This document shows, piece by piece, positions 1,331 to 43,120 of a DNA stretch of 64,000 bases. A program made the translations under genes and the position numbers. The first letter of the stretch is position 1, and each line of letters starts with the position of its first letter. The notes beneath the pieces were generated by a model. That model made no database searches. It saw only the letters and a program-made list of their open reading frames with translations, and was not told the DNA's origin. This DNA is from Balanoglossus misakiensis (lineage: Eukaryota; Animalia; Hemichordata): the NCBI GenBank assembly GCA_040954595.2, contig CM082579.2:15972550-16036549 (forward strand), written 5' to 3'.

Positions 1331-1342
1331 TTGAATTCCCGT

Positions 1343-11200: not shown

Positions 11201-13447
11201 GATGCCCCGGCACTATATATAGGACACAGACTGGCGTAAGTTAACAACGGTAATCACGTCGGGTTTCCTACGGCCTGGCTCAGCTGAAGCCCCGGCACTC
11301 TAGAGCAGAAACAGGCGTACATTGACCACGTTGATCAAGTCAGATTTCCTACGGCGTGACTCGGCTGGTGCACCGGCTCTATATGACACAGACAGGCGTA
11401 AGTTATCAACGGTGATTACGTCGGATTTCCTTCGGCCTGGTTTAGCTGAAGCCCCGGCACTTTAGAGCGGAAACACGCGTACATTGACCACGATGATCAA
11501 GTCAGATCTCCTACGGCCTGGCCCGACTAAAACCCCGGCACACCATGACAGACACTAGCGTTCGTTAGCAACGGTGATCAAGTCGGATTTCCTTCGGCCT
11601 GGCTCTGCAAAAGACCCGACACTCTAGTACAAAGACGTTGGCTAAGTCGGGCAAACCGAACAGGGAAAGTCACAGCGGGTCAACACTCGACATTTGTTCC
11701 GGGAGGACTGCATTATTGCCTGTCAATTTATAGAGAAAGCCCGAATTTAACCAGGGCGTTTCAAACACCGACGTTAGTTGGGGGCACGGCCTGCAGTACT
11801 GCCGGGTAAGCTGACATCAGCGTACCGCATATAATGTAGGGGGGGGGGGGAACAGAACGGTTAAATACTACATTTATCAGATAACAGCTAATTTTGGACA
11901 ATCATCTAAAATGTAAATCATCTTTTCATATTTGGATATCTGATGATGATGTATGACATTTCCATTATATGTAAAAATGGTGCTGATTATAAAAATGCAC
12001 TCTGAATGAGCTGATTTAATGCAAAATTGCGTTTTATTCGTTTTTGCACCAAAAAAGTCATTTTTAGGCAAAACATTCTTTATTTTTTTAATTCGGTGAC
12101 CTGATCATATATAAACAATTGCTTGTATGTTAAAAGTTTTTATGACTTTTAAAAGCAGTGACACTGGCGGCATTCAACACGAAAATAACAATTTTAGCCA
12201 CAATTTGGTCAAAATGGTAAATTTTTGAAAATTACAAAAAATACCTGTTTTCTACATTTTCGGAAATCTGATGGAGTATAGAATGCTCTTCGTATGTATA
12301 TATCGATACAAATTCCACAAAAGACCGTCTAATTTGGCTCACTGCAGACAAAATTGCGTTTTACAAAATTTTCCTTGAAAATGTCATTTTTAGAAAAAAA
12401 AAATAAAAAAACCTTTTATCTTCGAATTTGGTGCCCTGATCATATATGACATGTTGATTGTATGTTAAAACTTTCGACCACTCCAAAAATGCAGAGATAT
12501 TGACGGAATTCAAGAAATAATAGCCATTTTGGCCATATTTTGACAAAAATGGTAAATTTTTAAAAAAATCATAAAAAATTAACTCTTTTCTTCATTTTCG
12601 GAAATATTATGGAGCATGAAGTGTCGTTCTCTTGTAAAAAGTGCTGCAAATTCCAGAAAAGGCGGTATAATTTGAATCACCCAAGACAAAATTACCATTT
12701 TCGAATTTTTTTCGAAAAATTGTCTTTTTTACAAAATAAATAAGAATTAATTCTTTTCTTAGTTTCAAACGGGTAGAGATACTTTCCACACGGGTTTTCT
12801 AACATTGAATTCCCGTTCATCAACTCAGATTTCCTACAGCATAAGTCGGCTAAAACCCTGAGACTTTAGAGCAGAAACAGTTGCACACTGGTAACGTTGA
12901 ACAAGTCGATTTTTCTACGGCCTGGCTCGGCTAAATCTCCGTCACAATATGACAGACACTATCGTACGTTAGCAACGGTGATCAAGTCAGATTTTCTACG
13001 GCATGGCTTGGATAAAGCCCCGGCACTCTAGAGCAGAAACACGCGTACAGAGACCACGTTGATCTACTCACATTTCCTTCGGCCTGACACGGCTGATGCC
13101 CCGGCACTATATATAGGACACAGACTGGCGTAAGTTAACAACGGTAATCACGTCGGGTTTCCTACGGCCTGGCTCAGCTGAAGCCCCGGCGCTCTAGAGC
13201 AGAAACAGGCGTACATTGACCACGTTGATCAAGTCAGATTTCCTACGGCGTGACTCGGCTGGTGCACCGGCTCTATATGACACAGACTGGCGTAAGTTAT
13301 CAACGGTGATTACGTCGGATTTCCTACGGCCTGGTTTAGCTGAAGCCCCGGCACTTTAGAGCGGAAACACGCGTACATTGACCACGATGATCAAGTCAGA
13401 TCTCCTACGGCCTGGCTCGACTAAAACCCCGGCACACCATGACAGAC

Positions 13448-13700
13448 TATGGAAAGCCGTTGGGGACCCCCGACAACTTCTCTCAATACATGGGTAAAGT
13501 CCATAGACAAATGATAGGAACGCATATGCTGAAAATATGACGCACATTGGGTGCCGACGCCATAATCTAAAATGCCGGTAACAACCAAATTTTTGCCGAC
13601 ACCTTTACTCAATCTACCGGCGCCGACAAAATCACAACCGGTGATTTGATGAGTTCTCGCATCGGCGTTTCTACAGAGTTGTCGCATCGTCGTTTCAGCT
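13448..13700 (+). repeat. Left terminal inverted repeat (~250 bp)
   Basis: Near-exact reverse complement of 31912-32161. The mirrored spurious ORFs 13421..13687(-) and 31923..32162(+) translate almost identically. Confidence 0.95.
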
Positions 13701-14036
13701 AGAGTTTTCTCGCATCGGCGTTTCTGGAGAGTTTTCTCGCACCGGCATTCTACACATGCGCATTGGCGTTTCAGCTAAAGAGTTTTCTCGCATCGGCGTT
13801 TCTGGAGAGTTTTGTCGCACCGGCATTCTACACATGCGCATTGGCGTTTCAGCTAAAGAGTTTTCTCGCATCGGCGTTTCTGGAGAGTTTTGTCGCGCCG
13901 GCATTCTACACATGCGCATTGGCGTTTCAGCTAAAGAGTTTTCTCGCATCGGCGTTTCTGGAGAGTTTTGTCGCGCCGGCATTCTACACATGCGCATTGG
14001 CGTTTCAGCTAAAGAGTTTTCCCGCATCGGCGTTTT
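13691..14036. repeat. Subterminal 78-bp minisatellite (~4.5 copies) built on CGCATYGGCGTTTC motifs
   Basis: A 26-codon period is visible in the overlapping ORFs (ETPMRENSLAETPMRMCRMPARQNSP). An inverted counterpart lies at ~31720-31960. Confidence 0.92.
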
Positions 14037-14060
14037 CTCTGATTTTCTGAGCATGCGCAG

Positions 14061-16113
14061 TCACCACTGCAAACAGAACTTGTGGAGCGAAGTTGTAGTG
14101 AAGGTAAGAAAAGTTATGTTCGTTTGTCAAGTCTTTTCCGCTAGTTTCCTGCGAATTCACTGTCTCGTCTGTGTTATCTTTTTTTAAATAACTGTTTCCT
14201 AAACTCTTTTCGTGAAAAATTCTCTGGTTAGTTTACGTATTTCAGCCGATCATCCACAGAGAAGTTCTCAACTTGAAATGATTGCTGTTGATATGCTAAT
14301 ATGGCGCTCGCACGAAGTTAACTGAATGTCCATTTTGGGTGAGGGTCAGAGTTCGCTGGCTGGCTGTGTGGAAATCTTACTGGTACTCCTTGGAAAAGTG
14401 GCTGCAATTTGTAAACGGACAAAAAATTTTGTTCAGGAATTTAGTTTGGGAACAGAAAATAGTCAGTTCAGGGAGGTATAGGTCATTTTTTACTGTTCAA
14501 ATGTTAACCCAAGTTGGGTTCCTGTTGGGAGTCCATAGCTGTTTGTTTTATGAGCCTACAGATAGTGAAACTGATAGTGACACAGCTGAAAAAACATGGG
14601 TTGATCACATTATTGGTTGGTTTCTATGGACACCTGCATTTCAATTAGATGTGATGTTCTTGTTTTCATGTATAATGTTTGCCCCAATTTCGACTATGAT
14701 ATTTCACACTTGAATAAGGTATGATAAAATAAACAAATTTTGACAGTTAAGTTTACTACAGAAATTAAATTAAAAGAAACTTCATCAAGTCATAGAAGTC
14801 GCCAGATTTCATAACCGTTCATAGATTCCTGTCTGGGACAAATATAACCCAATTTGTTTCCATGTTTTTTGTTTTTCTAGTATTGATGCGATAAGCCTGT
14901 TGTATATGTAATACTTGTCTGTGCAATTTTTGAGAACAATTCACCACTGCAAACAGAACTTGTGGAGCGAAGTTGTAGTGAAGGTAAGAACAGTTATGTT
15001 CGTTTGTCAAGTCTTTTCCGCTAGTTTCCTGCGAATCCACTGTCTCGTCTGTGTTATCTTTTTTAATTTACTGTTTCCTAAACTCTTTTCGTGAACAAAT
15101 TCTCTGGTTAGTTTACGTATTTCAGCCGATCATCCACAGAGAAAGTTCTCAACTTGAAATGATTGCTATTGATATGCTAATATGGCGCTCGCACGAAGTT
15201 AACTGAATGTCCATTTTGGGTGAGGGTCAGAGTTCGCTGGCTGGCTGTGTGGAAATCTAACTGGTACTCCTTGGAAAAGTGGCTGCAATTTGTAAACGGA
15301 CAAGAAATTTTGTTCAGGAATTTAGTTTGGGAACAGAAAATAGTCAGTTCAGGGAGGTATAGGTCATTTTTTACTGTTCAAATGTTAACCCAAGTTGGGT
15401 TCCTGTTGGGAGTCCATAGCTGTTTGTTTTATGAGCCTACAGATAGTGAAACTGATAGTGACACAGCTGAAAAAACATGGGTTGATTACATTATTGGTTG
15501 GTTTCTATGGACACCTGCATTTCAATTAGATGTGGTGTTCTTGTTTTCATGTATAATGTTTGCACCTAAAGTGGTAAATTTAGGAACAAGTCTGCAGACC
15601 TTTTTCAGCAACAGTCAAAACGCAACTGTGTCATAATAATGCACTGGAATATGTTGAAAAGCTGAAAAAAAGAGAGTTCAACATAATTTAGAAAAGAACA
15701 AAAAGAAATGTAACGGATGATATACACTGTCATGGAATCTCCATGAATTTGATTGAACTCTTTATTTGAACTTTGACTTTTTTTTCTAATGACATTCATG
15801 TAAATTTACATGATTTATTCCGATTTACCAACCAATTTATAAACTGTAATTTTTTTCACTATAATGCCCCAAGTTCGACTATGATATTTCACATTTGAAT
15901 AAGGTATGATAAAATAAACAACTTTTGACAGTTAAGTTTACTACAGAAATTAAAAGAAACTTCATCAAGAAGTCGCCAGATTTCATAACCGTTCATAGAT
16001 TTCTGTCTGGGACAAATATAACCCAATTTGTTTCCATGTTTATTTGTTTTTCTAGTTTTGATGCAATAAGCCTGTTGTATATGTAATACTTGTCTGTGCA
16101 TTTTTTGAGAACA
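14061..16113 (+). repeat. Direct tandem duplication (880-bp copy 14061-14940; longer copy 14941-16113)
   Basis: TCACCACTGCAAACAGAAC starts both copies and TTTTGAGAACAAT ends both. The second copy has ~300 bp extra (~15565-15865). Each copy contains an AAG|GTAAGA splice donor. Confidence 0.93.
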
Positions 16114-16286
16114 ATTAGAATTTCCTACCAAAATGGTAATAAACTGATAAAATGAACAATCTAACAATTCAGATATTTTCCAATATAATTAGGATACAGT
16201 TAGGCCCTGAGCTATTCAGTTTGTGTCGATATACAACTAAACTGATACAATACTGGTGTTATACCTTTGTTACACTTGCAGACATC

Positions 16287-17573
16287 ATGTTACTGGCCCA
16301 AAAATTGCAAACTTGATATAGAAACCAAGACACTGTAGCAAATGATGTCATCCTTCGCTTCAGAGATGGTCAGACGAGAAGGGCCCATTCATTGGTGTTG
16401 TGTCTTTTTTCGGATGTGTTTGCCGCCCGTTTGCATTCGGAATGATCCAACGACAAAACCATTGATTGTTCTGACTTTGATCCCTTACTCATGCAAAATG
16501 TCATTGATGATTTTTATTTTGAAAAGTTAAATATTACAAGTGAAAATGTTGAAGATTATGTGGAGATATGTAACTTTTACATGATAAATTCTTTAAAAGA
16601 GAAATGTGAATCATTTTTAATTTCCAACATTGTAACTTCCCGCAGTATTAGAGACCTTGTATTTTGTCAGAAATACCAGTTAGATAGTACTTTTGAACAC
16701 TGTCTGTCAATAATTGATCAGAATGGTGTTAAACTGTTTAATTCTGAGCAAGTTTTGGAAGATTTTCTTCAACTTCCTGAAAGCATAGTTGTAAAAATAA
16801 TTCAGCGTCAGACGCTTTCGGTAAAGGAAGACACACTTTTGAATGCATTGTTTTTATGGGTGGAAAGGAAACTTCAGGGTGTCAATGGCAATGATATGGA
16901 TGCCCCCTTTTGTTTTGAGCCATTTCTTCCCCACATCCGTTTCTTGTCGTTAAGTGAAGAAAGTATTCATCGACTAATTTCTGAACAAATTTTGTGTTAT
17001 GAAGATGTCTTCCAGATATTAAAAGCAGTTCGACATCCTGGATGCAATTTTCCTGTTCCTGGTTATGTGGATGTAATCACAAGAAATGTGGTTCCAAATA
17101 ATGCCATTGTGGCGCGGCGTTTCATCAATGAAAAAAATCCAAACACATGGAAAGGAAACCAATTTGAGGGTGACAGGATTTCCTTTTCAGTGGATGTTCC
17201 TGTCTCACTGCTAGGTGTTTATGTGTTTGGAAATACAGATGAAAGTGTCCATGCTCATGTCACAATATTAAATCATCAACAAGCTGTTGTGTACAATACA
17301 GAAGCCTCAAACACTTCCCCCCAGATTACCTTTCCTGTTGTCTTCAGTAAGCTGATTAAAATCCAACCCAATGTAGATTATTCAGTTGTCTGTCAAATCA
17401 GAGGAAATAAAGAAACATCATTCGGGTCATGTGGGATCTCTCGCCGAAGAATCACAACATTAAAAAGTACTGATTTCTGGGTGACATTTAAAAATTTCAG
17501 TATGCAAGGTCTGAGCAATGGCACAGATGTCAGTCAGGGGCAAATCTCATCACTAATATTATTTGATATATAA
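16287..17573 (+). pseudogene. BTB-BACK-PHR protein (BTBD1/2/3/6-like Cullin-3 adaptor), intronless coding region with two in-frame TGA stops
   Basis: In frame upstream of ORF 16491: MLLAQKLQT*YRNQDTVANDVILRFRDGQTRRAHSLVLCLFSDVFAARLHSE*SND..., a BTB start with TGA at 16314 and 16443. BACK motifs: FLQLP...VKEDTLLNALFLWV...LPHIRF. PHR-like end: DRISFSVD..LLGVYVFG...NGTDVSQGQISSLIL. A splice acceptor TTGCAG ends at 16281. Confidence 0.88.
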
Positions 17574-17686
17574 ATAAAGGTGTTGTTTGGCAGGACATGG
17601 TGTATTGGTTTCTGGCACCCATCTTGACTGAAAGAATTTTGATGAAATCAATTTGTAATTCTTGAGGGATGATATGTGTTTTACCA

Positions 17687-18250
17687 GGTCCCATTTGGTA
17701 TATGCATATATACCATTGGAACCTTATGGGATTGGTTGCGTCTGTAATAGTATTTATCAGAAATTTCATTTGAGGGTGTGCATCAGATGTAGTTTCCTTG
17801 ATTTTGTTTTTCAAATCAAGGGGAAGAAATCAATTGTATATTTTTGGGATGATTTAGGACATTCTTGGTCAAAAAATATTTCTCAAAAGCCTCTACCCTG
17901 ATTGCTTTGAAATTTGCAGACCCTTTAATGAAAGTGTAGATTTCGTATTCTTGTGGCTGTTTTTTCCATTTTTGGTACAAAAATCAATTTCTCTGAAACG
18001 GGTTGTCCATCCAATTGCTTTGCAATTTACTAAATGTAGTTTCCTTTGGGGATTGTTATTATGATATATCAAAATTATAGTGAAAATGAAAATCTTGTAT
18101 TTTTGTATTATGTTTTCTAGGTTTCCATGTATTAGTTGATATCAGAAAGTTTTCAATTGATTTCTGTAAAATTTGAGTTGTGAGTCAACGGGATGTGCTC
18201 CTTTATAATTATAATGGGATCAAATCAAAGTAAAATTTGAATTGTTGTAT
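17687..18250. mobile_element. Degenerate non-autonomous Helentron-like (HINE) remnant; right end approximate
   Basis: Starts AGGTCCCATTTGGTATA..TATACCATTGGAACCTTATGGGATTGGTTG, homologous to the hairpin start of the element at 21214. Confidence 0.5.
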
Positions 18251-19390
18251 TTTATGACATTTTGTCTTATACATTTACCACAATTTTTTTTATCTCAAGC
18301 AGAAAAATATCCTGAACATTGTTCTTTGCAAGTTAGATGAAATCCCCTAATGAGTTTTTTTACACAGAAAATGTCTACATGTTTATATAACTTAGCCCAT
18401 CTGTCAAGAGACAGTTCTATTTGCTGTTCTATTTGGTGTGTGCACAGTACACATGCCATTGGCAGCTCACGAGTCAGTCAATGGCCAGTCAGTGTTTGCC
18501 TGTTGATCTGTGTGTGTGTATTCTGGTGAAAACCTTTCCTTCCGTAATCCTTAAACGGGACCACACTGTCCTTGACGGTATTTTTCTCTTTGATTCTGAA
18601 ATTGTCATGATAATTCCAGGCCCTTACACTATAGGCACTTTGCAAATGTTAGCAGCTGAGTTATCGAACCCTATCAAAATACCTAAACTGTTTCTTTTGC
18701 TACTTACAACATATGTCTGTGACAAATACTGCTTCATCATTTTATTATATAAATGCTCAATTGCAACACTGATTTGAGAGAAATGTATCTTGGCTTATTT
18801 TATAGTTCTGTAAATAATTTCCAAGTACATGTAGTACTGTTGACAAAATTTGATTAACTACTGCTTTATACTGTCATGGGCACCAACTCCGTCAATTATA
18901 TGTGATTGAACTGCCAGTATGAACTCTCATAAACCGCCACATTTCCACTCCACTATGACCAATTGATCTGAGTGAAACGGCGTCGCAATGAAATTTGGAC
19001 TGTCATAAGCCATATATCACATGTAAGCAATATGGATGATTTCAATGCTTCTTTATGCTTTGTATTGTGTAAAGCTCTGTTGTGTCAGCTAGTTTCTGGT
19101 TTGAGTCTAGTCATGGATTTCATTGTCAATACATGATGCGATTGCTGTTATCATAGAAAATAGAGTTCAAGTCAACAACAGCCTTTAAACATATGCATAC
19201 TGTGTCTTCTAGCAGAATACTTGGTGTATAAAAGCACTTTTGACAACTTGTATGGCATTTATATTCTACTGGGTGTATCAACTAATAGTTTGTTCTATTG
19301 GCGGCAGCATGTAGAAATGTTCAGTGTTGCCAGTAGGAGATGAGGTACAACAGATAGTTATTTTATGTTATGCTTTTAATATCATTTCAG

Positions 19391-22300
19391 ATGTATAAGA
19401 GAAAAGAAGACCTGACCAAAGGTAAATGTGAAATGTACTGTAAATGTAGGAAGATACTTTTTCCCTTGGAAATTTTGCACTCGTCAATTTGGATAATTCA
19501 CAAAAATTGTTTTCTAGAATTCGTATTTTTCAGCACAGTTGCTTTCTCACTTGATGCCTATGGAATATCCAACTCATTGAAAAAAGTGCAAGTGTTCAAA
19601 CAATTTAAGTAACACTTAATGTTTTTTATCCCTTGAAAGAGAGTCAAGAAGCATTGGGGCGACTAGCCGAACAGTTTCAGATGAAAGAGGCTGAAGTAAA
19701 ATCAAAGAGACTGAAGCGATCTGTTCCAAAGCCACCAGAACAACAGGTAGGAATTGCAATCCAAATGATACATACATGAAGAAAGATAAGAACTGCCTTT
19801 CTTGAAGTATTTTGGGAAGTTTTTAGTCCCCCCCCCCACCACTAACCTTTTTGTATTTTGTCTACACTTTTGTTTTCTTTCCATTCTACACCCAATAGCA
19901 TGATGAATTGCCCAGTACATGTATTTAATTTCTCATCATCTAATTTACAGACAAGGTAAACATTCTAGACACTGGTAATTTCATCATGCTTTAGGGAATA
20001 GAATAGAAGTGTAGAGTATACATACACAGGAAAGTATAGACCAAGGTTATGTACAGTTCAGCCTTTAAGCATTATACGTAATTGCTAGGAGTTATAACAC
20101 ATGTTTTCTTCATATCCATGCAATGTACAAGTCTTTTCCTTGTTAGTTATTTCCTGATTTTATGAAAATTTAAGTTTATATTCATGCCATTTTACATACA
20201 TTTATTAAAATTTTGATGTTTACCCTATTTTGTAACATTTTCATTCAGGTGTTTAATGTTACACCACTGATAAAAGACAGTAAAGGAGTTCTAAAGAAAA
20301 TGGGGGCAGTACTACCATCAGCTGTCGGCAGAAAAAGTCAGGTGGCCATTACCGTGGACAGTGGCTCAAATGCCATGCACTGGGCCCAGAGTGTATCGGC
20401 ACACTTCATCGACGTGGATTTTGTACCTTATGAGATGAATGACATAGGAGTGTTCATAAGGATGAAGGACCCAATGAATTTCCAATTAAAAGATCTGAAG
20501 GCAAAATACAAAAGTATGAAGGCGAAGACAGACAAGTTGCCAGTCTTCATGTTTGCAGTTGGGCAGAGTGAGTAAATCATGTCTATTTACATTGTCACAA
20601 GTTGTGTCAAGTATTTAACTGGATAAATTGAAAGGTTGTTTTTTTTCTTTGTGCCCGTTTCGTGTTGGATTATCCAGGTTAAAAAGTCATGGTAGTTTTT
20701 TATTATTCACTTGCTTCTTTTTAAACAAAAACAGACAAAAATAGAAGTGGCAGAACTTGTTTTGTTGGAAGAAAAGCGCCATTTCTGTCATTGTCACATG
20801 ACTGGGCAGACCCCATTATCCAGTGGGTATCATTGGCATGGTGGACTTTATGGTTGGTATATTCATGCTATCATGCAATTATGCAAAGCCTGGCATGAAC
20901 ATAACAAATTCAACAAATGCCATTTTAGACATGTATTTGCAAAATTGCAGGATAGTGGTACCTGTCTGGTCATGTGACAATGGCCCAAGTATGGGCACTT
21001 TTATTCCAACAATGCTACCTCCAAGTTCCACCACTTTGATTGTGTAAGTGCACAGGTGCATTATACTTGATTAACTTGATTATCTGACTCAAAGGTTGCA
21101 CTAAAAAAGTTTCAGCCTTGTCTATCAGTGACCCCTTAAGGCAAAGTCTCTCTCTGCTTCTTGCTGCTTTTTTACATTAATTATGTTTGATACAAGATAT
21201 TGTTTGTGTTATTAGGTCCCATTGGTATAGGCCTATATACCATGGGACCTTATGGGATGGGTTGTGTCTGTATGGATGTATGTATGTATGTCTGTATGTC
21301 CGTCCACATCAAAAACTTGAAAAACCGCTGCGCGTATCACCTTGATATTTGGTGTGCAGATGCAGGCAGGGCTGTAGATGGGAGTTTGTCCAAACGAAGT
21401 TGCCAGGCCCAAAAATATGCAAATTAGCCAGTAAAATGTGAAATTTATCAAAACTCTGAAAGTCAACAACTACTGCTCAGATTGCTTTAAAAATTGGTAT
21501 GCATGTACCTTATGTCAACCTCACATCGACCTGTAAGTGTTAAGTTAATATCATGGATGTTTTATTTTTTATGAATTTTTTAGTCTTTTTATTAAATTTA
21601 TACCTTTACTTATACCTCTATGGTTAAGCTATGTCCACGTCTTATTGTGGAGTTCTGGTCTGTGCAATAGTCCTGTACAGTGACTGTCTATTGGTCAGTG
21701 AGCACAATGGGGCCAAAATAAAAGGCAAATTTTTGGGCTCACCTGTAACACCTGCTTAACACATTAATTATGTGCATACCTAATTCCAGGCTAACCAATA
21801 AGGCTATAGGTTTGGTTTTTATTGAACATGGACCAGTATAAGGTCAAAATTTCTTGCCCAAATTTTGCATGACCTCAGGTGACCTTTGACCTACTTTATC
21901 ATATCTTGGCATCCAGAGCAGGTAGAGACTTCGCGTTTGGAGGGTTGGGACTAAAATTGAAAAGCCAAAATTGGGGGTCACCTGTGACACTTGCATATCT
22001 CATTAATTATGTGCATACCTAATTCCAGGCTAACCAATAGGGCTATAGGTTTGGTTTTTGTTGAACATGGACCAGTATAGGGTCAAAATTTTATGCCCAA
22101 ATTTTGCATGACCTCAGGTGACCTTTGACCTACTTTTCCATATCTTGGCATCCAGAGCAGATGTGCTTATTGCTATGTTGCTATGTTTTTACATGTAGAC
22201 ATACAGCGAATCAACATTCGACCACACACAACTTCCATTTCACTTGTATGATGATATGAGAATAAAAACTCGCCCCAAATGAAAAAATGGTAGAGGAATA

Positions 22301-24960
22301 TTATTCATTTTGGCGATGTTTTTTCACTCATGTCTTCAAGCCGAATGGAAGGTGTGTGTGGTTGAACGTTGATTCACTATATATCCACACATATAATAAC
22401 ATAAACGGTGTCTTGTATCAAACATAATTAATGGAAAAGGGGCAGCAAGAGAGAGACATTGTCCCTTTAATGACCTATTTTCCAGAGTAAATCTGTCCTT
22501 TTGTTATGTGTAGTCCCAGGTTAGAACTATGGTTTGTAGTTTCATTGCCAAAGGTTTAAGGATCCTCCTACGAGAACATCTGGTCTTTGTATAGTCAACA
22601 TTGAGAAATGATTTTAGTATGGACTAAAACTCAGTAGTAAATAATTAACAGTTTCTTTATGCATATGTGAGCTATGCTGATGTGCTTATCAATTTTCAGG
22701 GCATTTCTGTATTGTGTATTTTTTTTTTGTATTCCACAGCAAAACATTCTTTGAAAGCATCCTTTGTTAAAAAGAAGCTGCAACTGCAAGACAAAGAGTT
22801 CGAGCAGCAAGAGGAACCTGAACAAGAAATGGTCAAGGTATAATGGCATGAATATTTTAACATGTGAAATTTAGTCTGCCAGTGATGTCATGGTTTGTAA
22901 TACAGTGTGGCATACAGTATCTACTGGCGATGAATTGAAATCTTGACATTTCAACAAAATTTATGGGGAACAAAAAATATAGTTTAAGCACAAAACAGCA
23001 ACATTTTACAAAATCATAATTACAGCCAGATAGATATTTCATTTTTTTATTTTCTGTTATAGGGTACTGACAATGAAAAGTTAGTGTCCTGTGATCCTGT
23101 GTCCTGTGATCCTGTGTCCTGTGATGGTGTCAATGAAGATGTAGAAGTGATTGCGGTTGAAAATTCTGTTGACATAACAGTGGTGGAGGAGGTGGCAGCT
23201 TCATGTGAGGAATCCATGAAAGAATGTACTGCTGAACAGGCACTGAATTCAGAACAGGTTAGACATGATTAAGGTGGCACTGCATGAAACCGTCGAGACT
23301 TTTTCAGAGGCCTATTTCTCATCAAAGAAAAAGTTAAAACCCCCATAAACCATATATATTCTGGAAGCTGAGATTTTGAACTTTTGTTTGAGTTGCAAAT
23401 ATTATTGATCCCCGGAAATGGTGGCGATTTTGGGTGAAAAAAACATTTTTTTGATATTATGTCATGAAATTTAAAATAGGTAAAACAGTTGACCATGCAT
23501 CATGCATCTTAATATGTCATTCAAAACTAGAGTACACGTGCAAAAAAACGCTAATTTTGTTTTGCGTTATCTGCTTCCATTGAGGAGTAACAGCGTTTAA
23601 AAGTTAGATTTTCAGAAAATTTGATCAAATTCACGGTGAGTTGTATTGAATCAGAGTTTATTCCCGCCAGGGACACTTTATCGACAAACAAAACTAGCGT
23701 TTTGTTGGATGGGTCATACACAATTCCCTGTCAAAATTTGAGCAAATTCGGCCAACGCAGGGCGAAGCTATTTTAGTCCGAAATTGTCAAGAGCAGCGAA
23801 AATGCAAACTGAGAAAAACGGCTATTTGCATTGTTGACACCTATTTGTTAAGCTGTGAACTCATTCAGAAAAGTGCTATTTTGGGGTGATTATGCACCAT
23901 TTCCGCCAAGACGTATTAGTCAGGTTGTGGGTCAGTATTAGGCCTACCGATTTATGTAAAAAAGTAAAATTTGGCAAAAATCACAACTTTTCATGCAATG
24001 CCACCTTAATTAACTACTATAAATGATGGAGCAGGTTCTCCGAATAAATATTCGAATGATCAGGCACTTCTAGTCAATACCAATTGTATTTATTGGCAAA
24101 ATGTCTATTCTGCTACAGTAATACCTGTCGAAACTGAACACCAAAGTGACTGAAGAAATTATTCCATTTGCAAAGGTGTCTGGTTTATAGGGGTTCTTTT
24201 AACATGTGGTTCCATGTCAAAGGGACAGGAACATGTGTTCAATATAGATAGGTTTCAAGATTAGACAGGTTTTACTGCTGCATGAGGAAATATGGGGACA
24301 GTCAGAGCAGATATGATGGAAAATAACTCTGACTGGTATTTGCAAAGGTGTTGAAAGATTATGGAATGACTCTTAAACAAATGGGGCTTTCACATGTGAT
24401 GTTTAGGCCGCCCCTGGGGGATATTGATTAGTCTAAGGTATTAAATGGTATCAATATTAACGTTACAGGAAAGAGAGAAACAAGCTCAAAGGAAATTGCA
24501 GAGGAAAGATGTAAGTTTAGTCGAATTTTGATTCTGAGTCATACATTTGACTGGATTGGTTATACTCCTACACCAAAGTGACAGTTTGGGCAATGATGTT
24601 AATACTGGATTGAAACGTGTTGATTGTCTTTGTAGTTTTTGATAAATTCTTCATTTTTACATTTATAGGATAGTTTTTGATAAATTGTTAATTTTTAGGT
24701 CCAATGTCTAAAAATTTAAAGCTCAGAGGTGCATTCTACTAAATGTTTGTTTTGTACTTTCTCATCCACATACCTATTTCACGTTAGGCAAGGCAATCTC
24801 TTCCCTAGGAACCAGTTAGTCAGTGAATTGTCTGCTCAGGTTATGACACTCAATGTGTTTATTTCTTTACAGGCAGCACAGGCCAGAGCCGAAAATATAA
24901 GATTGCCCTTGATTAACGAAAGGAAAAGACAAATCTGCATCATGGTCCTTGATCCACAAT
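19391..24960 (+). CDS. Unknown multi-exon gene of the TIR element (charged/coiled-coil), 3' end truncated at the LINE
   Basis: Seven AG/GT-bounded exons join in phase with no stop: 19391-19421, 19640-19746, 20249-20567, 22740-22837, 23063-23257, 24469-24510 and 24873-~24960. Translation: MYKRKEDLTK/ESQEALGRL.../VFNVTPL.../TKHSLK.../GTDNEK.../EREKQAQRKLQRKD/AAQARAENIRLPLINERKRQICIMVLDPQ. Further upstream exons are possible. Confidence 0.72.
21140..22466. mobile_element. Old TTAA-flanked foldback MITE (Kolobok-like), left arm interrupted by a HINE
   Basis: TTAA at 21136-21139 and 22467-22470. CATTAATTATGTTTGATACAAGA (~21175) is inverted at ~22410-22433, and 22193-22390 is an imperfect palindrome. 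Confidence 0.7.
21214..22165. mobile_element. Non-autonomous Helentron-associated element (HINE/DINE-like); right end approximate
   Basis: Begins after TT with the hairpin GGTCCCATTGGTATA..TATACCATGGGACC, followed by a (TGTA/TGTC)n microsatellite. Two ~240-bp repeats (21718-22160) share GACCTCAGGTGACCTTTGACCTACTTT with the Helentron subterminal regions. Confidence 0.7.
23273..24005. mobile_element. Non-autonomous TTAA-specific DNA transposon (Kolobok-like), 733 bp, intronic
   Basis: TTAA|GGTGGCACTGCATGAAA ... TTTCATGCAATGCCACC|TTAA. The GG..CC ends favour Kolobok over piggyBac. Confidence 0.85.
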
Positions 24961-25887
24961 GGAGTCCCACAGGGATCAGTTTTGGGCCCAACCCTTTTCC
25001 TTATTTATATCAATGACCTTCCAAATTCTTCTACATTTTTTTATTTCCGTTTATTTGCTGACGACTCCAATCTCTTCCATTCCTTCTCAGGTGCAGATAG
25101 TATTAACTTGACTCATATATCCTCTTATTTAAATGATGTTCAGCAATGGTGCAATGCCAACAAACTAACAATTAATAGGGCCAAGACTCACTTTATTATT
25201 TTTAGGGGTCGGCAGAAAAAACTTAATGTTCTTGGGTCATTGCAAATCCAGAATGAAGAAATCAAAGAGGTTGATGTGATACCATTTGTTGGGGTTTTAT
25301 TGGATAAGCATCTGTCATGGTCACATCAAATTAACAAAATAAATAATCTCATTAGGAAGCACTGTGGAATTTTATACAAGATTAGAAATATTTTACCACT
25401 CCATATCAGAATTTTGTATTACAACGCCTTCATACTCCCCCATGTTACATATGGTCTTGAGGTTTGGGGCAATACTTACCCCACAAAGTTACGTTGTATC
25501 CAAGTTGCCCAAAAAACAATTGTACGTATAATGCTTTTCAAATCACACATGGACCATTCATCTCCTCTCTTTAATCAACTGAATATTTTGGATATTACCA
25601 AGCTTCACAGTTATTTGCTAGGTTCCTTCATTTATTATTTATATCACCAGAAATCTCCACATTCACTTTCAGATTATTTTAACACAACAAGTCATGAGCA
25701 TAATACCAGAATTTGGTTACATCACTATCTACGCCCGTTCCATGCAAAAACAAACTCAGGCCAGTTCTCGATATCACATACTGGAGCAAAAATCTGGAAC
25801 GATATTCCTCCACAAATTAAGTCTTCAAATACTTTATGCCAATTTCGTAGGACATTTAAACAACACCTCTTAAACCAGTACAAATGA
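24949..25887 (+). CDS. LINE reverse transcriptase, C-terminal fragment
   Basis: GVPQGSVLGPTLFLIYINDL, LFADDSNL (catalytic motif), WCNANKLTIN, and the terminal FRRTFKQHLL. Confidence 0.95.
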   Translation: MIHNGVPQGSVLGPTLFLIYINDLPNSSTFFYFRLFADDSNLFHSFSGADSINLTHISSYLNDVQQWCNANKLTINRAKTHFIIFRGRQKKLNVLGSLQIQNEEIKEVDVIPFVGVLLDKHLSWSHQINKINNLIRKHCGILYKIRNILPLHIRILYYNAFILPHVTYGLEVWGNTYPTKLRCIQVAQKTIVRIMLFKSHMDHSSPLFNQLNILDITKLHSYLLGSFIYYLYHQKSPHSLSDYFNTTSHEHNTRIWLHHYLRPFHAKTNSGQFSISHTGAKIWNDIPPQIKSSNTLCQFRRTFKQHLLNQYK

Positions 25888-26209
25888 ATTTGTAATTTTC
25901 TTGATGTAGTATGATGCTGTTTTGTTTGTTTGTTTGTGATTGTTGTTCCTTTCTTTTTTCCATTACCATTTGCAATGGATAACTTTACACTGTTGTAGTG
26001 AGATCGTACTTGAATCACGCTTCAAGCGTTCCCTCAACATTATCTTTTTTTTTCTGTAACCAAGCAAGCTATATTGTAGGAGTACAGGCTAGACTAGCTG
26101 TGGCTATTTCCTGACTCCATATTTACCCACCATTTGTATTTTTACCTATCATATGTACCCTTTAATTAATGGGTAAATAAAACATTATTATTATTATTAT
26201 TATTATTAT
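24955..26209 (+). mobile_element. 5'-truncated CR1-group (Crack/Daphne/L2-like) LINE
   Basis: RT C-terminal ORF, 3' UTR, AATAAA at 26176 and an (ATT)n tail at 26184-26209. No TSD was found. Confidence 0.92.
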
Positions 26210-26218
26210 ATAACTGAC

Positions 26219-27421
26219 CTGGTTAGCAGTTGAAGGACCATACCAAAAGCTGTTGTCAGCAAAAGCATCATCACCATCTGTCCTCAACATGGCTTGAGCA
26301 GTCATTATCACTCCTGTTTCTGTGCCATGATCTGCTCGCAAGATCCTGGGGCAACCTGCAAACAAATTAGGATTGACATTGGCAGCTCTTACAGTTAAAA
26401 TGTTAACCCCCCCCCCAAAAAAAAAAAAAAAAAAAATTGTACACACTAGATTTAATTTTTAAGAAAGATTTTCATTCCAAATGCTTTACTGCCTACACGT
26501 AGTTTCAATGTTTTTCAACACAGCCTGGATATGTGAAGATCATTACAATGTTGCCACAGGAAATATTGGGTACAAGACTAATATGAGCATGCAATGGATA
26601 ATTGTCATTGATTAGTGGTTGGCTAAATTTATCGCCTTTACCCAGTTCAGAAATGTCAATAAAACAAATTTTGTCAAAATGATATGTTTAACAACCTTGA
26701 GTGAATGTGTCTATTACCTTTCAGCTTCTCAACTGTGTCTATGAAATAGGAAGCAACTTTGCTTGGATCATTGTTTGATGCACCAACTTTCAACCACAAC
26801 ACCCTTCGCGAAAATCTATAGAAAACAAAGTTATTATTAATTTTCAAATTAAAAAAGGAATAAGTAAATTTCATTGCATAAACATATTTCCACAGAATTG
26901 TTACTAAATGTGCTTCATTAATCTTAGCTTTCATCAATATTGTGATTCTCAAAAAACCAATGGTGTTACAATGGGTCTCCAGCATTCCTCAGAAAGGTTT
27001 GTATAGATGATAAGTTGATAGCACTTACCCATCGATGCAACCATGAATGGCAAATCCATATGGAGATAGTTTATCATACCCATCTAAAAAAAAAATCAAA
27101 ACACAATGTCATACATGCCTAAATGTAGGGATAAACTGTTAATGCCATCTTGAAAATTTGCAGTGCATTATGGGTCAATTGAGTTCCGGTTGGGGGGAGT
27201 AGCGTCTACAACCTATCCATTTCCAGCGGTTTAGTCAGATTTTCTTCATGTAACTACTACTACTAACGTTACTTGAAGAAAATCTGACAAAACTGCTGGA
27301 AAATTGGATAGGTTGTAGACGCTACTCCCCCCCCCCCCAACTGGGACTCAATTGACCGATAATGCACTGCAAATTTTCAAGATGGCGTTAACACAGTTTA
27401 TCCCTATATTTAGGCATGTAT

Positions 27422-27456
<35 letters not shown>

Positions 27457-29181
27457 CGATTTGGGAGTTCGTTGCAAGTACTGCTGGCAGAGTGCTCGAT
27501 GGTGTAAATCCAGAGCTTGATAGTAGAGTGTGCAAGGGAACTAAGGCTGTTTTGACATAGGCGGTGTATTACTGTTCAGTTTCGTGTAAGCGGGGCCTAC
27601 ACTCGTCAGATACTGATGCCTGAATGATGGTGAAGGGTGTGGACAACAGGGAATTGGGTAGGGTGGATATGCAAATGGGCCTACATTTGAATGGGAGTGT
27701 GTATTGATTGGGGCTGTGTGGAGGGGTGCTGATTGGCCAGATTCTTCAGGAGGAATTTGCTGGAGTGGTGGCATGTGCTGACGAGTTCGTTACGTTTGTT
27801 GAGTGTGGCTAGTTTTGGTTTGCATATGATGAAATATTTTTCCCAAAGACATAGGTTGCATCTGTTGCTGGTGGGGGTATAGGGGCTAGCTTGTTTTATT
27901 GTTTTCCATGTGATTTTGTGTTCTATGTGCTCGTCCTTTAGTTTCCAAGTTCTGTACTGTTCTTTTTGGCGGCGTTCCTGAATGAGTCCTTGTGGTTGTT
28001 GAAGCGGGTCTTGAAGGTGTTGGCAGTTAGTCCGACGTAGGTTTGGTCTGGCTTGCTATCCTGCGTAGTAACGGTGGCTTGGTATACAATTGATTCGGTC
28101 AGGCAGTGTCCTGACATTGGGCAGTTTGCAGGTGACCGGCAGTTGCATTGTTTTTTAGTGCTGTTGTCGTTGTTGCTGGAAAGTACCGATTTGTTGTGAT
28201 TCTGGATGGTTTGTGCTGTGTTGCTCATGGTGCTGTAGCTTATTTTTACTGTGTTCCGGTTGAATATACGCCGCCAACAGAACAACCACAAGCCCACAAG
28301 AGAAACCGCAGCAGGAACATAATATGGTACACCCCACCGTACAGTAAAAACGTCGCCACACATATAGGGAGAGAGTTCCTCAAAATAATTAACGAAGAAT
28401 TCCCACCAAGCCACACCCTCCACAAGATATTCAACCGGAACACAGTAAAAATAAGCTACAGCACCATGAGCAACACAGCACAAACCATCCAGAATCACAA
28501 CAAATCGGTACTTTCCAGCAACAACGACAACAGCACTAAAAAACAATGCAACTGCCGGTCACCTGCAAACTGCCCAATGTCAGGACACTGCCTGACCGAA
28601 TCAATTGTATACCAAGCCACCGTTACTACGCAGGATAGCAAGCCAGACCAAACCTACGTCGGACTAACTGCCAACACCTTCAAGACCCGCTTCAACAACC
28701 ACAAGGACTCATTCAGGAACGCCGCCAAAAAGAACAGTACAGAACTCAGTAAATACATTTGGAAACTAAAGGACGAGCACATAGAACACAAAATCACATG
28801 GAAAACAATAAAACAAGCTAGCCCCTATACCCCCACCAGCAACAGATGCAACCTATGTCTTTGGGAAAAATATTTCATCATATGCAAACCAAAACTAGCC
28901 ACACTCAACAAACGTAACGAACTCGTCAGCACATGCCGCCACTCCAGCAAATTCCTCCTGAAGAATCTGGCCAATCAGCACCCCTCCACACAGCCCCAAT
29001 CAATACACACTCCCATTCAAATGTAGGCCCATTTGCATATCCACCCTACCCAATTCCCTGTTGTCCACACCCTTCACCATCATTCAGGCATCAGTATCTG
29101 ACGAGTGTAGGCCCCGCTTACACGAAACTGAACAGTAATACACCGCCTATGTCAAAACAGCCTTAGTTCCCTTGCACACTC

Positions 29182-29275
<94 letters not shown>

Positions 29276-31427
29276 TAGTGGACAACAAAGGGACCGAAGA
29301 ACTGTTTTGTTTGCAAAGGTAATTAGTTCATAGAGTTTATTTTAACTTGTGGTTCTGTGTCAAAGGGACTGAAAAATTTGTTTGGTAAGGACAGGTGTCC
29401 ATGTTCAGAAGGTCCGGTTTAGACAGGTTCAGACTGTACAATCAGTTAATTTGCTTACCAATGTGCCATACATAATTTGGTCCTTTACATCTGTACTCAC
29501 GCCGTATTAACCGGCGATGCAGGCGTCGTTGAACGTTTATTGGATCCAGGATCCTAAGAAGTTTTCGTACAGTCTCCCTACAAAAAAAGAAATCTATTTA
29601 TTACATATTTTAATAAAATAAGAATAATCTGCAATTTAATTGAAATGAGATTTGTAATAAATCTGGGCCAAAGTTTTTATTCAATGAGTGAAATAGATTT
29701 GACATCTGCACTTCAACTTTAGATTAGCAGGGAGAATTAGGAAACAAGTCCATCACCTGTTATTTTCTTGCCAAGGGAGCTTATTCAAATAGCATTTCCC
29801 TTACATCAATCAGCCATTTCAAATAAAAGACCCTTGTTGATGATATCAATGAACACTTATGTTTGCATTATTGTTTTTATCATTCCAGTATTACAAAAAA
29901 ATTTTTTTTACCTTTTAACCATCAATTGGTGCTTAGTTCTCAGGATAGCTAGCATTTCATTGGCTCCAACAATGCAGCCAGACCCTGTATTCAGTTCTGT
30001 CTGTAAATGAATAAAGGAAAGGATGGTTGGATAGATTGATAGATGTGTGAACAAATGAATGAACACATTCAATATTAGAATAGCTGACATTCACAGTTGA
30101 AAAAATTAGTTAATAAAATGTGACATAAATCGAATACTTTTGAAATTGCTTCTAATCCATGCAAGTGGTAGAACACAAACAACTGACATAAATGAATTAA
30201 TTTCCTAGCAACAATGTCCCTCGCATATCTGCCCAAATGACAAAAGGGTGACCAGGAAAATGGAGTTCTTCTGCAAGATGTTCAGAATTTGATTTTAATT
30301 TGTTATACTGAATGTGGGCAATTAAGTCAGACTTGGGAAGTGGTGTCACTAATTAAATGTAGGTTAGGGTAAAGAGCTTAACATACAAGCACAGCAGAAA
30401 CAATGTCATCAAAAGATGACTGTGCTCTTCTCCCTTTTCGATAGAGTCCAAGGTGATGGAGGAATTTGCGCTTGAAGTATGAAAACCTACAGAGTCAAAA
30501 TAAAGTGAGAGTGAGTTGTACACTAAAGGGATAACATAAAAGGAAGAGACTGGTCATTACACAATTTCCAAGTAACAGATAATAAAATAATGTAAGTTTA
30601 CCACTCAAAAGTAAAGTTATTATGTTTTTAATGCTGTTTACCTCAAACGGAATCCATGTTGTTTTACCATTACATAATAAATTAATTTGTGTGTATAACC
30701 ATACGAGAAATACTTCTTAATGAGTTCCCTTTGCTCTGTAAGAAAATAATATTCACAAGTGACTTGTGTAAAATTGGCAATCTAACATAAAAGGAAATTA
30801 TCTATCTGTTTGCATTAAATGCAGTATTTTGGTTTCAGGTTTTAGGTGTACATGTACCCCTATTCTACAGCTTTGAAGAGCCAACCCCATCAAGGAACCA
30901 TTCTGTTTTTTATCTAAGCATTAAATAGTGGTTTCATATATCCATGTAAATGCTGTTGTTTCATAAGAATTGGCCAGTTATTGTGCTATTTCCCAATTCA
31001 TTCTAATGCTAGTTTGCATAGCTAAGTGCCAGTAAACAGTTAATTTGCCAGACTTCACCAACATAATAATAATTCATTGTAGCAATCTAACACTGAGTGG
31101 GAAATAAATGGGAATTCAATTTCAACAAAATTAATCTGATTATTGCTGAATTTTAAAAGCTGAGAATTTCATCATGTTTAAATGCTGAACAAGAAACTGA
31201 AATAAACTGAGAACATAATAGTTGCTAGCCTGGTCTCCATACCCAGTGTGTTTTATAGATAGACTCGCACACTAGGTATGGATACCAGGCTATAGTTGAA
31301 ATCTTAAGACACAGTAAAGCTTCAAATCTGATCAATGCCTTTCCTTCTTTCAATGTTTAGAAAGAACATGTAAAGTAACGTCATAAAATTCATAATGAAA
31401 CTTACCTAGAGTAGCCATAATTCTCAT
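26219..31427 (-). CDS. Spliced IS3EU-type DDE transposase, 8 exons, 238 aa recovered, C-terminus (third catalytic residue) missing
   Basis: GT-AG exons in consistent phase: 31427-31406, 30735-30642, 30486-30387, 30000-29912, 29577-29459, 27083-27029, 26815-26718 and 26355-26219. They give ...[10 protein letters not shown]...[57 protein letters not shown]...NNDP...[13 protein letters not shown]...GPSTANQ (integrase core D...D). Confidence 0.92.
27106..27426. repeat. ~320-bp foldback element (near-complete palindrome), intronic
   Basis: ATGTCATACATGCCTAAAT..GGGATAAACTG pairs with CAGTTTATCCCTATATTTAGGCATGTATGACAT. Arms are ~150 bp around a short TACTAC loop at ~27256-27267. Confidence 0.9.
27566..27613 (-). 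ncRNA. Type I hammerhead ribozyme (inverted copy)
   Basis: Exact reverse complement of 29094-29141. Confidence 0.85.
28268..29026 (+). CDS. Penelope ORF C-terminal part: RT thumb/linker plus GIY-YIG endonuclease
   Basis: [30 protein letters not shown]...[21 protein letters not shown]. The first 40 aa of the track ORF (from 28148) are antisense read-through of the inverted arm. Confidence 0.9.
   Translation, partial: TPPTEQPQAHKRNRSRNIIWYTPPYSKNVATHIGREFLKIINEEFPPSHTLHKIFNRNTVKISYSTMSNTAQTIQNHNKSVLSSNNDNSTKKQCNCRSPANCPMSGHCLTESIVYQATVTTQDSKPDQTYVGLTANTFKTRFNNHKDSFRNAAKKNSTELSKYIWKLKDEHIEHKITWKTIKQASPYTPTSNRCNLCLWEKYFIICKPKLATLNKRNELVSTCRHSSKFLLKNLANQHPSTQPQSIHTPIQM
29094..29141 (+). ncRNA. 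Type I hammerhead ribozyme in the Penelope 3' repeat
   Basis: GTAT-CTGACGA-GTGTAGG(CCCCG)CTTACAC-GAAA-CTG(AA)CAG-TA-ATAC. It has an intact CUGANGA/GAAA core, stems I-III and a GUA cleavage triplet ending at 29137. Confidence 0.88.
29186..29273. repeat. (TA)n microsatellite; its other part lies at 27425-27452
   Basis: Pure TA run of ~88 bp. Confidence 0.97.
31226..31292. repeat. 67-bp foldback mini-element in transposase intron 1
   Basis: TAGCCTGGTCTCCATACCCAGTGTG ... CACACTAGGTATGGATACCAGGCTA, flanked by TAGTTGC and TAGTTGA (possible TSD). Confidence 0.65.
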
Positions 31428-31911
31428 CAGCAACAGTTGCCTTGGAGTAGCATGTTGATCTTATGCGCATGCTCTGTACGAACATCGGTTGACCACATGA
31501 TAACAAACGTAAAAATTATAATTTGCTAATAACAATAATTTATTTAAAATATCTAAGCCTATAACGTTGAAAGACTTTTAGCTCAGTGTTCTAACAAATG
31601 CATGGGAGACCTAGCAGCAGTTCAGCATCTCGAGATTTTGCCTTGTGATTTACTCTTTGACTACAAAACCTTAACTAAAGAGGAGACCGAGAAGAAAAGG
31701 CCGCTGTCCAAAATCGCCGACAACTCTTTAGCTGAAACGCCAATGCGCATGTGTAGAATGCCGGTGCGACAAAACTCTCCAGAAACGCCGATGCGAGAAA
31801 ACTCTAGCTGAAACGCCGATGCGCATGTGTAGAAATGCCGGTGCGACAAAACTCTCCAGAAACGCGGATGCGACAAAACTCTCCAGAAACGCCGATGCGA
31901 CAACTCTCTAG

Positions 31912-32161
31912 CTGAAACGCCGATGCGACAACTCTCCAGAAACGCCGATGCGAGAACTCATCAAATCACCGGTTGTGATTTTGTCGGCGCCGGTAGATTG
32001 AGTAAAGGTGTCGGCAAAAATTTGGTTGTTACCGGCATTTTAGATTACGGCGTCGGCACCCAATGTGCGTCATATTTTCAGCATATGCGTTCCTATCATT
32101 TGTCTATGGACTTTACCCATGTATTGAGAGAGGTTGTCGGGGGACCCAACGGCTTTCCATA
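31912..32161 (-). repeat. Right terminal inverted repeat
   Basis: Reverse complement of 13448-13700, preceded by inverted subterminal motif repeats from ~31720. Confidence 0.95.
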
Positions 32162-37678: not shown

Positions 37679-38773
37679 ATTATTAGGGGCACAAGCCTAT
37701 CGGGCTTGTGCCCCTATTGGTATTGTTGGAATTTTTCTTATTATTATTCTTCTTCTTCCGAGAAATATGTCATTGTAGATCTGGAAAACCGCAGCACCTA
37801 GGGGGCCGAAACTTGGTAGGGTGGTAGGGACCAATGAGTAGATGTGCAGTGGCTCGTGAATATTTAATTAGTCACGTGACCTGGCGGCCATATTGGATTT
37901 CCTGAAAATCGTTAAACGAGTCCTTCTCAAAAACCACTGGGCTGATCGAGTTCAAATTTGGTGTGCAGGTAGCCTACCTTATGTCCATCATTTTACCCTA
38001 TTAAAATCATGACGTCATACATAAAGTTTTTTTGCTACAATTGTTTTTCTGAAAAACCGCTTAAAACTTTAAAAATCTTCTTCTCCAGAACCAGTGATTG
38101 CCGAGTCACGGGATTCGGGGTATGTGGTCACCTAACCTATGCCTATCAAGTTTGCGAAGCGCATTGTGATTGGTCGATCATTATGGCGGCCATGTTGGAT
38201 TTTCGAAAAACCATTGAAAAATGAAAATTCCGTTTTGTAGCCAAAATGTTGACAGCACGGAAATTCTTTTTTTCGATATGAGTCATTATATGACCGGAAG
38301 TTGTCACAATTTTCTGGGCAATTTTCACATGACCTTTGACCCAGTTTTAAAACAACTAATTATATATGCATATACCTCCTCTTGTCAAAGCACCGCAGTC
38401 ATGAATTTTGTGGACATGGGTACCAATGCTGCCAGGACATGACACAAATATTTTGGTAATTTTGGCAATGACCCTTGACCTATTTCTTAAACATCATTTT
38501 TCTGCATATCTAATTCCAGGTTAACCAATAGGGCTAGACGTCTGGTTTTAGTTGGACATGGCCCACTCTGGGTAAAAATTTTATGCCCAAATTTTGGGTG
38601 ACCTTGGATGACCTTTGATCTACTTTCCCATATCTCAGCATCCACGGCAGTTAGAGTCCTGGCTTTTGGGGGCCGATGGAGCACATATGGAGTCTTACAC
38701 AAGACATCATTAATTATGCACATACCTAATTCTAGGCGAACCAATAGAGCTAGGGGTCTGGTTTTTGTTGGAC

Positions 38774-42400: not shown

Positions 42401-43120
42401 GGCTATTGGGATTGTTATTACTCACACTTTTGATATCATATATTGTCTGTTAATTACAGTAACAAAGTGTCAGGTTGGAATTATGACATACATTCATGTA
42501 GGACTAAAACTGTGAGTTTTGATGAAATCAGGTGAAATACATATCTCAATTGACAGTACTGGAATAAATAAAATCATCAAGAAATGACAGTCGGGTGCAT
42601 TTAATGGATAACATCACAACAACATGGTAACACCCATAACATTTTGGGTATAGTCAAATAAAAGTCATGTCACGCATCAGAAATCATAAACGGCCACCAC
42701 TGACTTCTTTTTTTGTAGCACGTTATAAATTGGTGTGCTTTAATATACATAAATAAGCAGGTATGTGTGCACAATGACCTACAACATGATAATATCATGT
42801 CACTATAATGATGATCCATGTAAATGATTGCATGTGAACATGTCATTTCAATAAAATCACTGCAGCCATGTCAAACAAATGGCTCTGAAATGATAGACAA
42901 TCAAATACTAGTCTCCCATCACACAAAAACAGTAACAGCTTGATATCAAATGTGACAATTAGCACCAGGGTAACCTAAGAGTAACATGTTAATTTGTTTT
43001 TCAACCCCCCACCCCAACAATTCCCAAATGGGGACCCGTAAGTCTCAAACCCCATTATCCCTCCCACCAGTTGTATGTAACACGGGTTTTAATTACTATA
43101 TGCATAATGCCTTAATGATG

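Follow-up and report, generated by a model that had tools for sequence, protein, structure and literature searches.

A defective 18.7-kb IS3EU-type transposon carrying a BTB-BACK-PHR gene in Balanoglossus misakiensis

Does a host-type gene found inside a DNA transposon belong to the element, or is it only carried along? The question is raised by a stretch of 64,000 nucleotides of the acorn worm Balanoglossus misakiensis (GenBank assembly GCA_040954595.2, contig CM082579.2, positions 15,972,550 to 16,036,549 of the forward strand), the whole of which is called the window below. In this window, an IS3EU-type unit of 18.7 kb encloses a spliced transposase gene, a convergent spliced gene (ORF2) and an intronless gene coding for a BTB-BACK-PHR protein. 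IS3EU elements have been described with two proteins, and a sequence-only reading of the window had proposed the unit as a candidate for an undescribed three-gene system. The analysis reported here leads to a different picture, to which we give a probability of about 55%: the unit belongs, as a defective copy, to a multi-copy IS3EU/GingerRoot family in which the BTB-BACK-PHR gene is standard, and this gene and ORF2 likely formed an accessory module of the ubiquitin system that is now decaying.

The unit starts at position 13448 with TATGG and ends at 32161 with CCATA, giving TAT..ATA termini, and it is bordered on both sides by the target-site duplication (TSD) ACAGAC (13442..13447 and 32162..32167). 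The terminal inverted repeats (TIRs) are located at 13448..13700 on the + strand and 31910..32161 on the - strand. Their alignment contains 6 mismatches and 1 gap across the first 253 columns (about 97% identity), and they run into 27/78-bp subterminal repeats, with which the inverted match reaches 446 nt at 90%. After removal of the element and of one TSD copy, the reconstructed empty site matched 14 other units of the flanking macrosatellite in the window at 95.6-98.7% across the junction. The agreement of TIRs, TSD and empty site is far above chance and fixes the limits of the element. The alignment and the rebuilt empty site bear out the TIRs of about 250 bp, the TAT..ATA ends, the 6-bp TSD and the in-register satellite flanks described in the sequence-only reading. 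IS3EU elements, which have been united with GingerRoot, have TA..TA ends and usually 6-bp TSDs (PMC10045372). The window element has both, the TSD being known from one insertion and the termini TATGG...CCATA also fitting the TAYGG..CCRTA of fungal families.

The two ends of the element are rich in CpG. The observed/expected ratio is 1.36 in the left subterminal 27/78-bp repeats (13654..14035, +), a putative inward promoter, and 1.24 in the right 27/77-bp repeats (31719..31956, -), a putative transposase promoter, against 0.39-0.55 in the interior of the element. All 8 copies of a GCGCATG-type motif, which we take to resemble an NRF1 site, are found in these ends, with none in 17,289 interior bases and none in 13,447 bases outside.

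The transposase gene was modelled on the - strand at 26219..31418 with the help of homologous proteins, all gene structures given here being predictions from the DNA. The model comprises 8 exons (31418-31406, 30735-30642, 30486-30387, 30000-29912, 29577-29459, 27083-27029, 26815-26718 and 26355-26219) with GT-AG introns and codes for 235 amino acids without a stop. Single exons of the transposase and of ORF2 gave no Pfam match. One transposase exon of 40 residues retrieved two relatives, P0001 and P0002, among 5 candidates, and both are PF24764 integrase-core proteins according to Pfam. The model is 80% identical over 164 amino acids to P0002, which is Ptychodera flava XP_070548835.1, and 49% identical over 231 columns to P0001. 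When inspected by eye, its core motifs WHIDGYDKL..YG..I.G.IDG.SR and STxNQ agree with the rows of IS3EU-1_CGi, IS3EU-1_DR and IS3EU-2_SK in the supplement of PMC10045372, unlike those of Ginger2 and IS3, and about half of the core is identical to that of IS3EU-1_CGi (PMC10045372).

A tree of 36 rows was built from the retrieved relatives only, with no named Repbase rows of IS3EU, IS481EU or Ginger; it includes 33 of 46 metagenome loci with a related transposase, the other 13 being dropped for short coverage. The window transposase and P0002 are paired in it at 99/95, and the 22-row clade that contains this pair has 100/100. Neither the transposase nor the BTB protein had a relative in viral contigs. 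As judged from its predicted sequence of 235 residues, which, as in this lineage, has no HHCC, the transposase belongs to the IS3EU/GingerRoot type. The IS3EU identity first proposed for the unit is therefore upheld by the PF24764 homologs, the core motifs, the TA..TA ends and the 6-bp TSD, and the proposed richness in introns is upheld by the 8-exon transposase and the 7-exon convergent gene.

Is the BTB-BACK-PHR gene a component of the family or of this copy alone? The stretch, or part of it, is present in five sequencing runs, X1 to X5, none of which is recorded as RNA. In the X1 read contigs, the long contigs have similar depths over the BTB gene (16087-19043; 683), ORF2 (731-740), a LINE fragment described below (729-764) and the transposase (663). 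The alleles of the window copy itself account, by subtraction, for a depth of about 38 in X1 and 71 in X2, and the family could very roughly number 18 copies from the X1 depth, depth being no copy number. TIR depth is about two to four times above gene depth and a high-depth X2 contig begins exactly at 13448, as expected where many different flanks meet. Among the records listed for X4 and X5 (organism B), only short pieces over high-copy repeats were obtained, and X3 gave no contig that could be placed. The BTB contig of 2,957 nt, which covers the gene and 1.5 kb beyond, shows 4 differences from the window copy. Since the BTB gene shares the high-depth path with the two other genes, it is a family-level component and not a single-copy insertion, in agreement with the earlier proposal of a third gene. 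An insertion in the window copy alone is very improbable, as features that are truly private to this copy, such as a 737-bp insertion and the stop at codon 53 of the BTB gene, appear in the contigs as skipped or minor.

The BTB-BACK-PHR gene (16287..17573, +) has 428 codons and is interrupted by TGA at codon 10 (16314-16316) and at codon 53 (16443-16445). It is preceded by a splice acceptor before its ATG and followed by AATAAA after the stop, at 17573. The BTB, BACK and PHR domains are found in this order, all above the Pfam cut-offs, and the nearest Atlas clusters are BTBD6-like at 0.95-0.96. The protein is remote from BTBD2 (PHR structure 3no8; E 9e-8) and retains a natural C-terminus and the C-terminal PHR motif. 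That three domains and the C-terminus have been kept despite this remoteness from solved relatives suggests long selection. The frame is not intact: two stops interrupt the window copy and one of them is kept on the majority path. At codon 53, the majority contigs read TGG and the TGA is private to the window copy. The TGA at codon 10 is common, the contigs of both X1 and X2 covering the site and listing no change at a 10% share, and the 418 remaining codons are open on the majority path. The contigs drop rare variants, so that intact versions of the gene could be hidden.

The convergent gene, ORF2, was modelled on the + strand at 19391..24946 (exons 19391-19421, 19640-19746, 20249-20567, 22740-22837, 23063-23257, 24469-24510 and 24873-24946). 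Its 7 exons code for 288 amino acids and the model is truncated at 24946 without a stop. The largest exon retrieved Ptychodera flava XP_070548833.1 (P0003) at 56%, which in turn retrieved P0007 from Saccoglossus; over 338 columns, the model and the P. flava protein are 35.5% identical (E 5e-57). Two other candidates, P0004 and P0005, were dropped as apparently composition-driven matches to unrelated repeat proteins. The P. flava homologs of ORF2 and of the transposase are each placed on one contig of 203,092 bp and, as neighbourhood can be inferred from this, the pair of ORF2 and transposase would be common to both species.

ORF2 is cut where a UBX-like region begins in P0003 and P0007, and both acorn-worm models end right after that region. 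The UBX signal in the C-terminus of the ORF2 homolog is weak, with a Pfam E-value of 0.013, below the cut-off, and Atlas rows under the naming bar. The two structure models were poor (pLDDT about 40): fold and sequence searches returned only an N-terminal coiled coil or non-significant rows, and the low-confidence model of ORF2 had no significant fold match. An alpha-kinase identity, as in fungi, was considered for ORF2 and found no support from Pfam or Atlas.

The second gene is of another kind in related loci. A HECT-like frame was detected opposite the transposase strand in 12 of the 46 metagenome loci with our own profile, built from 4 loci, which corresponds to about 7 independent groups after merging of near-duplicates. 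Of 14 proteins submitted to Pfam, 6 were recognized as HECT; all 6 are among the 7 antisense frames, and the remaining frame gave a weak UBX match. HECT is present in both main clades of the transposase tree. In locus L001, inverted repeats enclose the transposase and the HECT gene within about 3.8 kb. Locus L046, a weak match in gene-dense DNA, was not counted as an element. In locus L041, an IS3EU-type transposase is faced by a frame of 807 amino acids (5726-8146, -), which has a HECT domain and weak signals of SAM and ubiquitin-like type. The region before HECT in L041 and L005 was aligned with the C-terminus of P0003 and P0007 by hhalign at E 0.009 and a score of 21.1, the best of 30 shuffles reaching 16.4. 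No HECT domain was found in the window, P0003 or P0007, and, unlike the HECT-terminated genes of the related loci, both acorn-worm homologs of ORF2 stop behind the UBX-like region. From these weak similarities, ORF2 is likely the usual second gene in a form without HECT.

The copy in the window is defective. The transposase model retains both catalytic aspartates and ends at STANQ, immediately ahead of the RIE motif that carries the catalytic glutamate. Nothing in the window matches the final 164 residues of P0002, nor is there a credible match to the C-terminal halves of the homologs; with the glutamate-bearing exons absent, the DDE triad of an autonomous copy is incomplete here. The break lies at 24945..24946, a deletion junction with a shared GT at which exon 7 of ORF2 is fused to the middle of a LINE fragment. 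The majority contigs diverge at this point, X1 showing 484 other letters past 24946 and 545 before 24945, and X2 showing 252. This deletion accounts for the loss of the 3' ends of both the transposase and ORF2. The LINE fragment (24945..26209, +), a 3' part of a non-LTR retrotransposon with an (ATT)n tail and a Pfam RVT_1 match, presumably of L2/CR1 type, lies in transposase intron 8. Insertion of the LINE was rejected as the cause of the lost ends, since the family path includes the fragment and the break is at 24945/6. Being on the high-depth path of the family, the LINE fragment has been multiplied as cargo of the DNA transposon. Its end is 10 bp from a transposase splice donor.

Another defect is a MITE-like insertion of 737 bp with inverted ends (23269..24005), which is skipped by X1 and X2 contigs that join 23268 directly to 24006. 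Together with the stop at codon 53 of the BTB gene, the insertion and the deletion make three defects private to the window copy. In the full family element, the MITE at least is absent, and a minimum of half a kilobase, probably more, is added at the deletion. All three genes of the sequence-only reading are present and two are spliced, but none is whole, the transposase and the convergent gene being cut and the BTB gene carrying stops. That reading had overlooked the defects of the copy and the stop at codon 10 in the common version of the BTB gene.

Several observations weigh against a BTB-BACK-PHR gene that served the family. The majority contigs keep the TGA at codon 10, and no in-frame splice bypass of this stop scored well (acceptor 16322 at -2.9); of the 13 upstream donors, the single ATG-bearing one would add a few codons only. 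A word-based search among 1742 candidates yielded no BTB relative at E 0.001, and thus no close host parent or Ptychodera counterpart, and neither the BTB protein nor ORF2 had a match at E 0.01 in any of the 46 related loci, few of which reach far enough. The N-terminal domain of ORF2 could not be aligned with the HECT-bearing protein (hhalign E 0.23), and the segment lost at 24945/6 may encode a HECT domain. No single contig bridges the BTB gene and the transposase. In addition, the X1 and X2 contigs come from one sample, possibly from the same genome as the window, and are not independent support; contig depth does not count copies, and the depths of X2 are uneven. Owing to the codon-10 stop, the BTB gene was probably dispensable for the version that last multiplied here, in which it was likely a passenger. 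Instead of having been captured from the host, as the sequence-only reading proposed, it may nevertheless have long belonged to the element, since the search yielded neither a close host parent nor any other close relative.

The same stop would also fit a passive hitch-hiker, namely a fast-evolving, intronless, BTBD6-like host paralog that was captured once by a master copy, never became useful and multiplied, like the LINE fragment, as a pseudogene. The majority path includes the LINE fragment too, and presence on that path is therefore no proof of use. The absence of a BTB match from the 46 related loci, the common occurrence of BTBD6-like clusters in invertebrates and the frequent presence of host fragments in GingerRoot elements (PMC6839031) agree with this explanation. 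However, the coding region is there in full, flanked by an acceptor upstream of its ATG and AATAAA downstream of its stop, and 418 codons are open on the majority path, whereas the GingerRoot captures were all fragments (PMC6839031). We regard hitch-hiking from the outset as possible, though rather unlikely. The open frame on the majority path would also be compatible with a gene still in use, either by read-through or from ATG 16491, the first in-frame ATG after the stop, which would yield a half-BTB decoy protein for PHR partners. But five out-of-frame ATGs precede 16491 after the stop in the window copy, the part missing from such a product lies within the Pfam BTB match, and the context of the codon-10 stop is presumably not of the leaky TGA-CTA type; continued use appears improbable. 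We prefer a gene that was standard in the family, once part of an accessory module and now decaying.

How could such an element have worked? The family membership and the 6-bp TSD point to a cut-and-paste insertion, in which a DDE transposase, coming either from a sister copy or, before the deletion, from the window copy itself, would have brought the TIRs together and integrated the unit into the satellite with a 6-bp stagger. To judge from its anatomy, the right end would drive the transposase. A single transcript from a left-end promoter could be spliced either to the BTB gene, with polyadenylation at 17573, or to ORF2, as splice acceptors directly precede both ATGs and strong donors are located at 14103 and 14983. 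The former closes a predicted non-coding first exon of approximate start (14060..14103, +; donor score 11.3 on a splice-site matrix derived from the 14 donors of the element) and the latter is its duplicate. By analogy with its family, host Cullin-3 would be the partner of the BTB-BACK part, and a substrate would be selected through PHR or BTB pairing, with a host silencing factor or spent transposase as the most likely target. UBX domains bind p97, and the UBX-like end of ORF2 could recruit it to extract the substrate. The Cullin-3 adaptor and the p97 recruiter would then replace the HECT ligase encoded by the second gene of related elements. We only tentatively extend this scheme to an old IS3EU sublineage of acorn worms and oysters that would have swapped HECT for a Cullin-3 adaptor and a UBX-like p97 recruiter, hijacking host degradation: the former would tag the silencing factor or spent transposase, and p97 would then remove it from chromatin.

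In the relatives examined, the second-gene slot of IS3EU is usually occupied by a gene of the ubiquitin system. If HECT has been replaced by Cullin-3 and p97 adaptors, the degradation-hijacking kit would parallel, in a transposon, the hijacking of cullins by viruses, and the host factor by which these elements are restrained could be identified as the substrate of the Cullin-3 adaptor. If, on the other hand, the BTB gene is a mere passenger, it represents one further gene capture by a superfamily known for capture. Such elements might also be a route by which lineage-specific BTB-BACK-PHR families multiply in invertebrate genomes.

The interior of the element contains further repeats, and together with an internal duplication the nested repeats occupy about 6.3 of the 18.7 kb, about a third, coding exons accounting for 15%. 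In self-comparison, the duplication (14061..16116, +) pairs 14061-14685 with 14941-15566 and 14680-14941 with 15865-16116; parts of it show about twofold contig depth in X1. High-copy short repeats of very high summed depth lie in ORF2 intron 3 (21197..22470, approximate limits). Intronic sequence of the transposase gene also holds a MITE-like inverted repeat of 321 bp (27106..27426) and a retroelement fragment (27454..29273) that is inverted, partly duplicated and bordered by TA repeats. The latter forms a near-perfect inverted duplication of 761 bp (98%), had no match in Pfam and is assumed by us to be of the Penelope/GIY-YIG type.

The macrosatellite around the element (window 1-13447, 32168-37678 and 55615-64000) consists of units of ~1.8-2.1 kb, in each of which an 81-bp subrepeat occurs 7-11 times; an Rfam search of the window, macrosatellite included, gave no match. 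Another insertion, of 17.9 kb (37679-55614), interrupts a different macrosatellite unit, is flanked by the 6-bp direct repeat AGCGTT and shows no TIR. Its site is 3 bp away from the IS3EU target motif in the same register of the 81-bp subrepeat. Within it, an open frame of 2389 amino acids (43555-50724, -) with OTU, Helitron Rep, PIF1 helicase and endonuclease domains is apparently an intact Helitron-type gene, which we take to be of the Helitron2/Helentron subtype; TSDs are, to our knowledge, not expected from Helitrons.

In comparison with known systems, the element is a variant of the IS3EU superfamily and not a new system. The structure and function of IS3EU are largely unexplored (PMC11934779). 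The claim of an undescribed system did not survive comparison with the literature, since three-gene IS3EU elements of fungi (PMC12730594) and gene capture by GingerRoot (PMC6839031) are in print; it is further weakened by the HECT genes, through which the second gene of related animal elements already belongs to the ubiquitin system. Neither a BTB nor a HECT gene turned up as part of a published IS3EU element in a literature search that left subscription papers, Repbase entries and bioRxiv supplements, where such a description may exist, mostly outside. With the HECT-bearing animal elements (L001, L002, L005, L021, L039 and L041), the window element shares the transposase family, a convergent second gene and, weakly, the UBX-like region, but those loci are compact (~3.8 kb in L001), HECT-terminated and show no BTB gene, most of the 46 loci being too short to reach its position.

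Like GingerRoot and IS3EU, the window element has TA..TA ends, a 6-bp TSD, TIRs and an IS3-like DDE core (PMC10045372, PMC6839031). It is larger, with 18.7 kb against 3.9-12.9 kb in GingerRoot and TIRs of 253 against 100-150 bp (PMC6839031), a size for which DNA transposons of 16-20 kb offer precedent (PMC6431247). GingerRoot elements carry fragments of host genes in 22 of 77 copies (PMC6839031), whereas the window element has many introns and a whole BTB-BACK-PHR coding region. The fungal TET+ IS3EU families contain three genes, for a transposase, a TET/JBP dioxygenase and an alpha-kinase, and resemble the window element in opposing the transposase to a second gene and in adding a host-type third gene thought to be helpful (PMC12730594). 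They differ in that this third gene is central and is accompanied by an alpha-kinase gene (PMC12730594), whereas in the window the BTB-BACK-PHR gene lies upstream of a UBX-like second gene. The element's BTB protein has the domain order and the C-terminal PHR motif of the Cullin-3 adaptors BTBD1, BTBD2, BTBD3 and BTBD6. Its gene is unlike theirs in being highly diverged, intronless, situated inside a transposon and interrupted at codon 10, and its binding to Cullin-3 is a prediction, modelled on BTBD6, a Cul3 adaptor of the same architecture that can recruit a substrate via BTB pairing (10.1101/575910).

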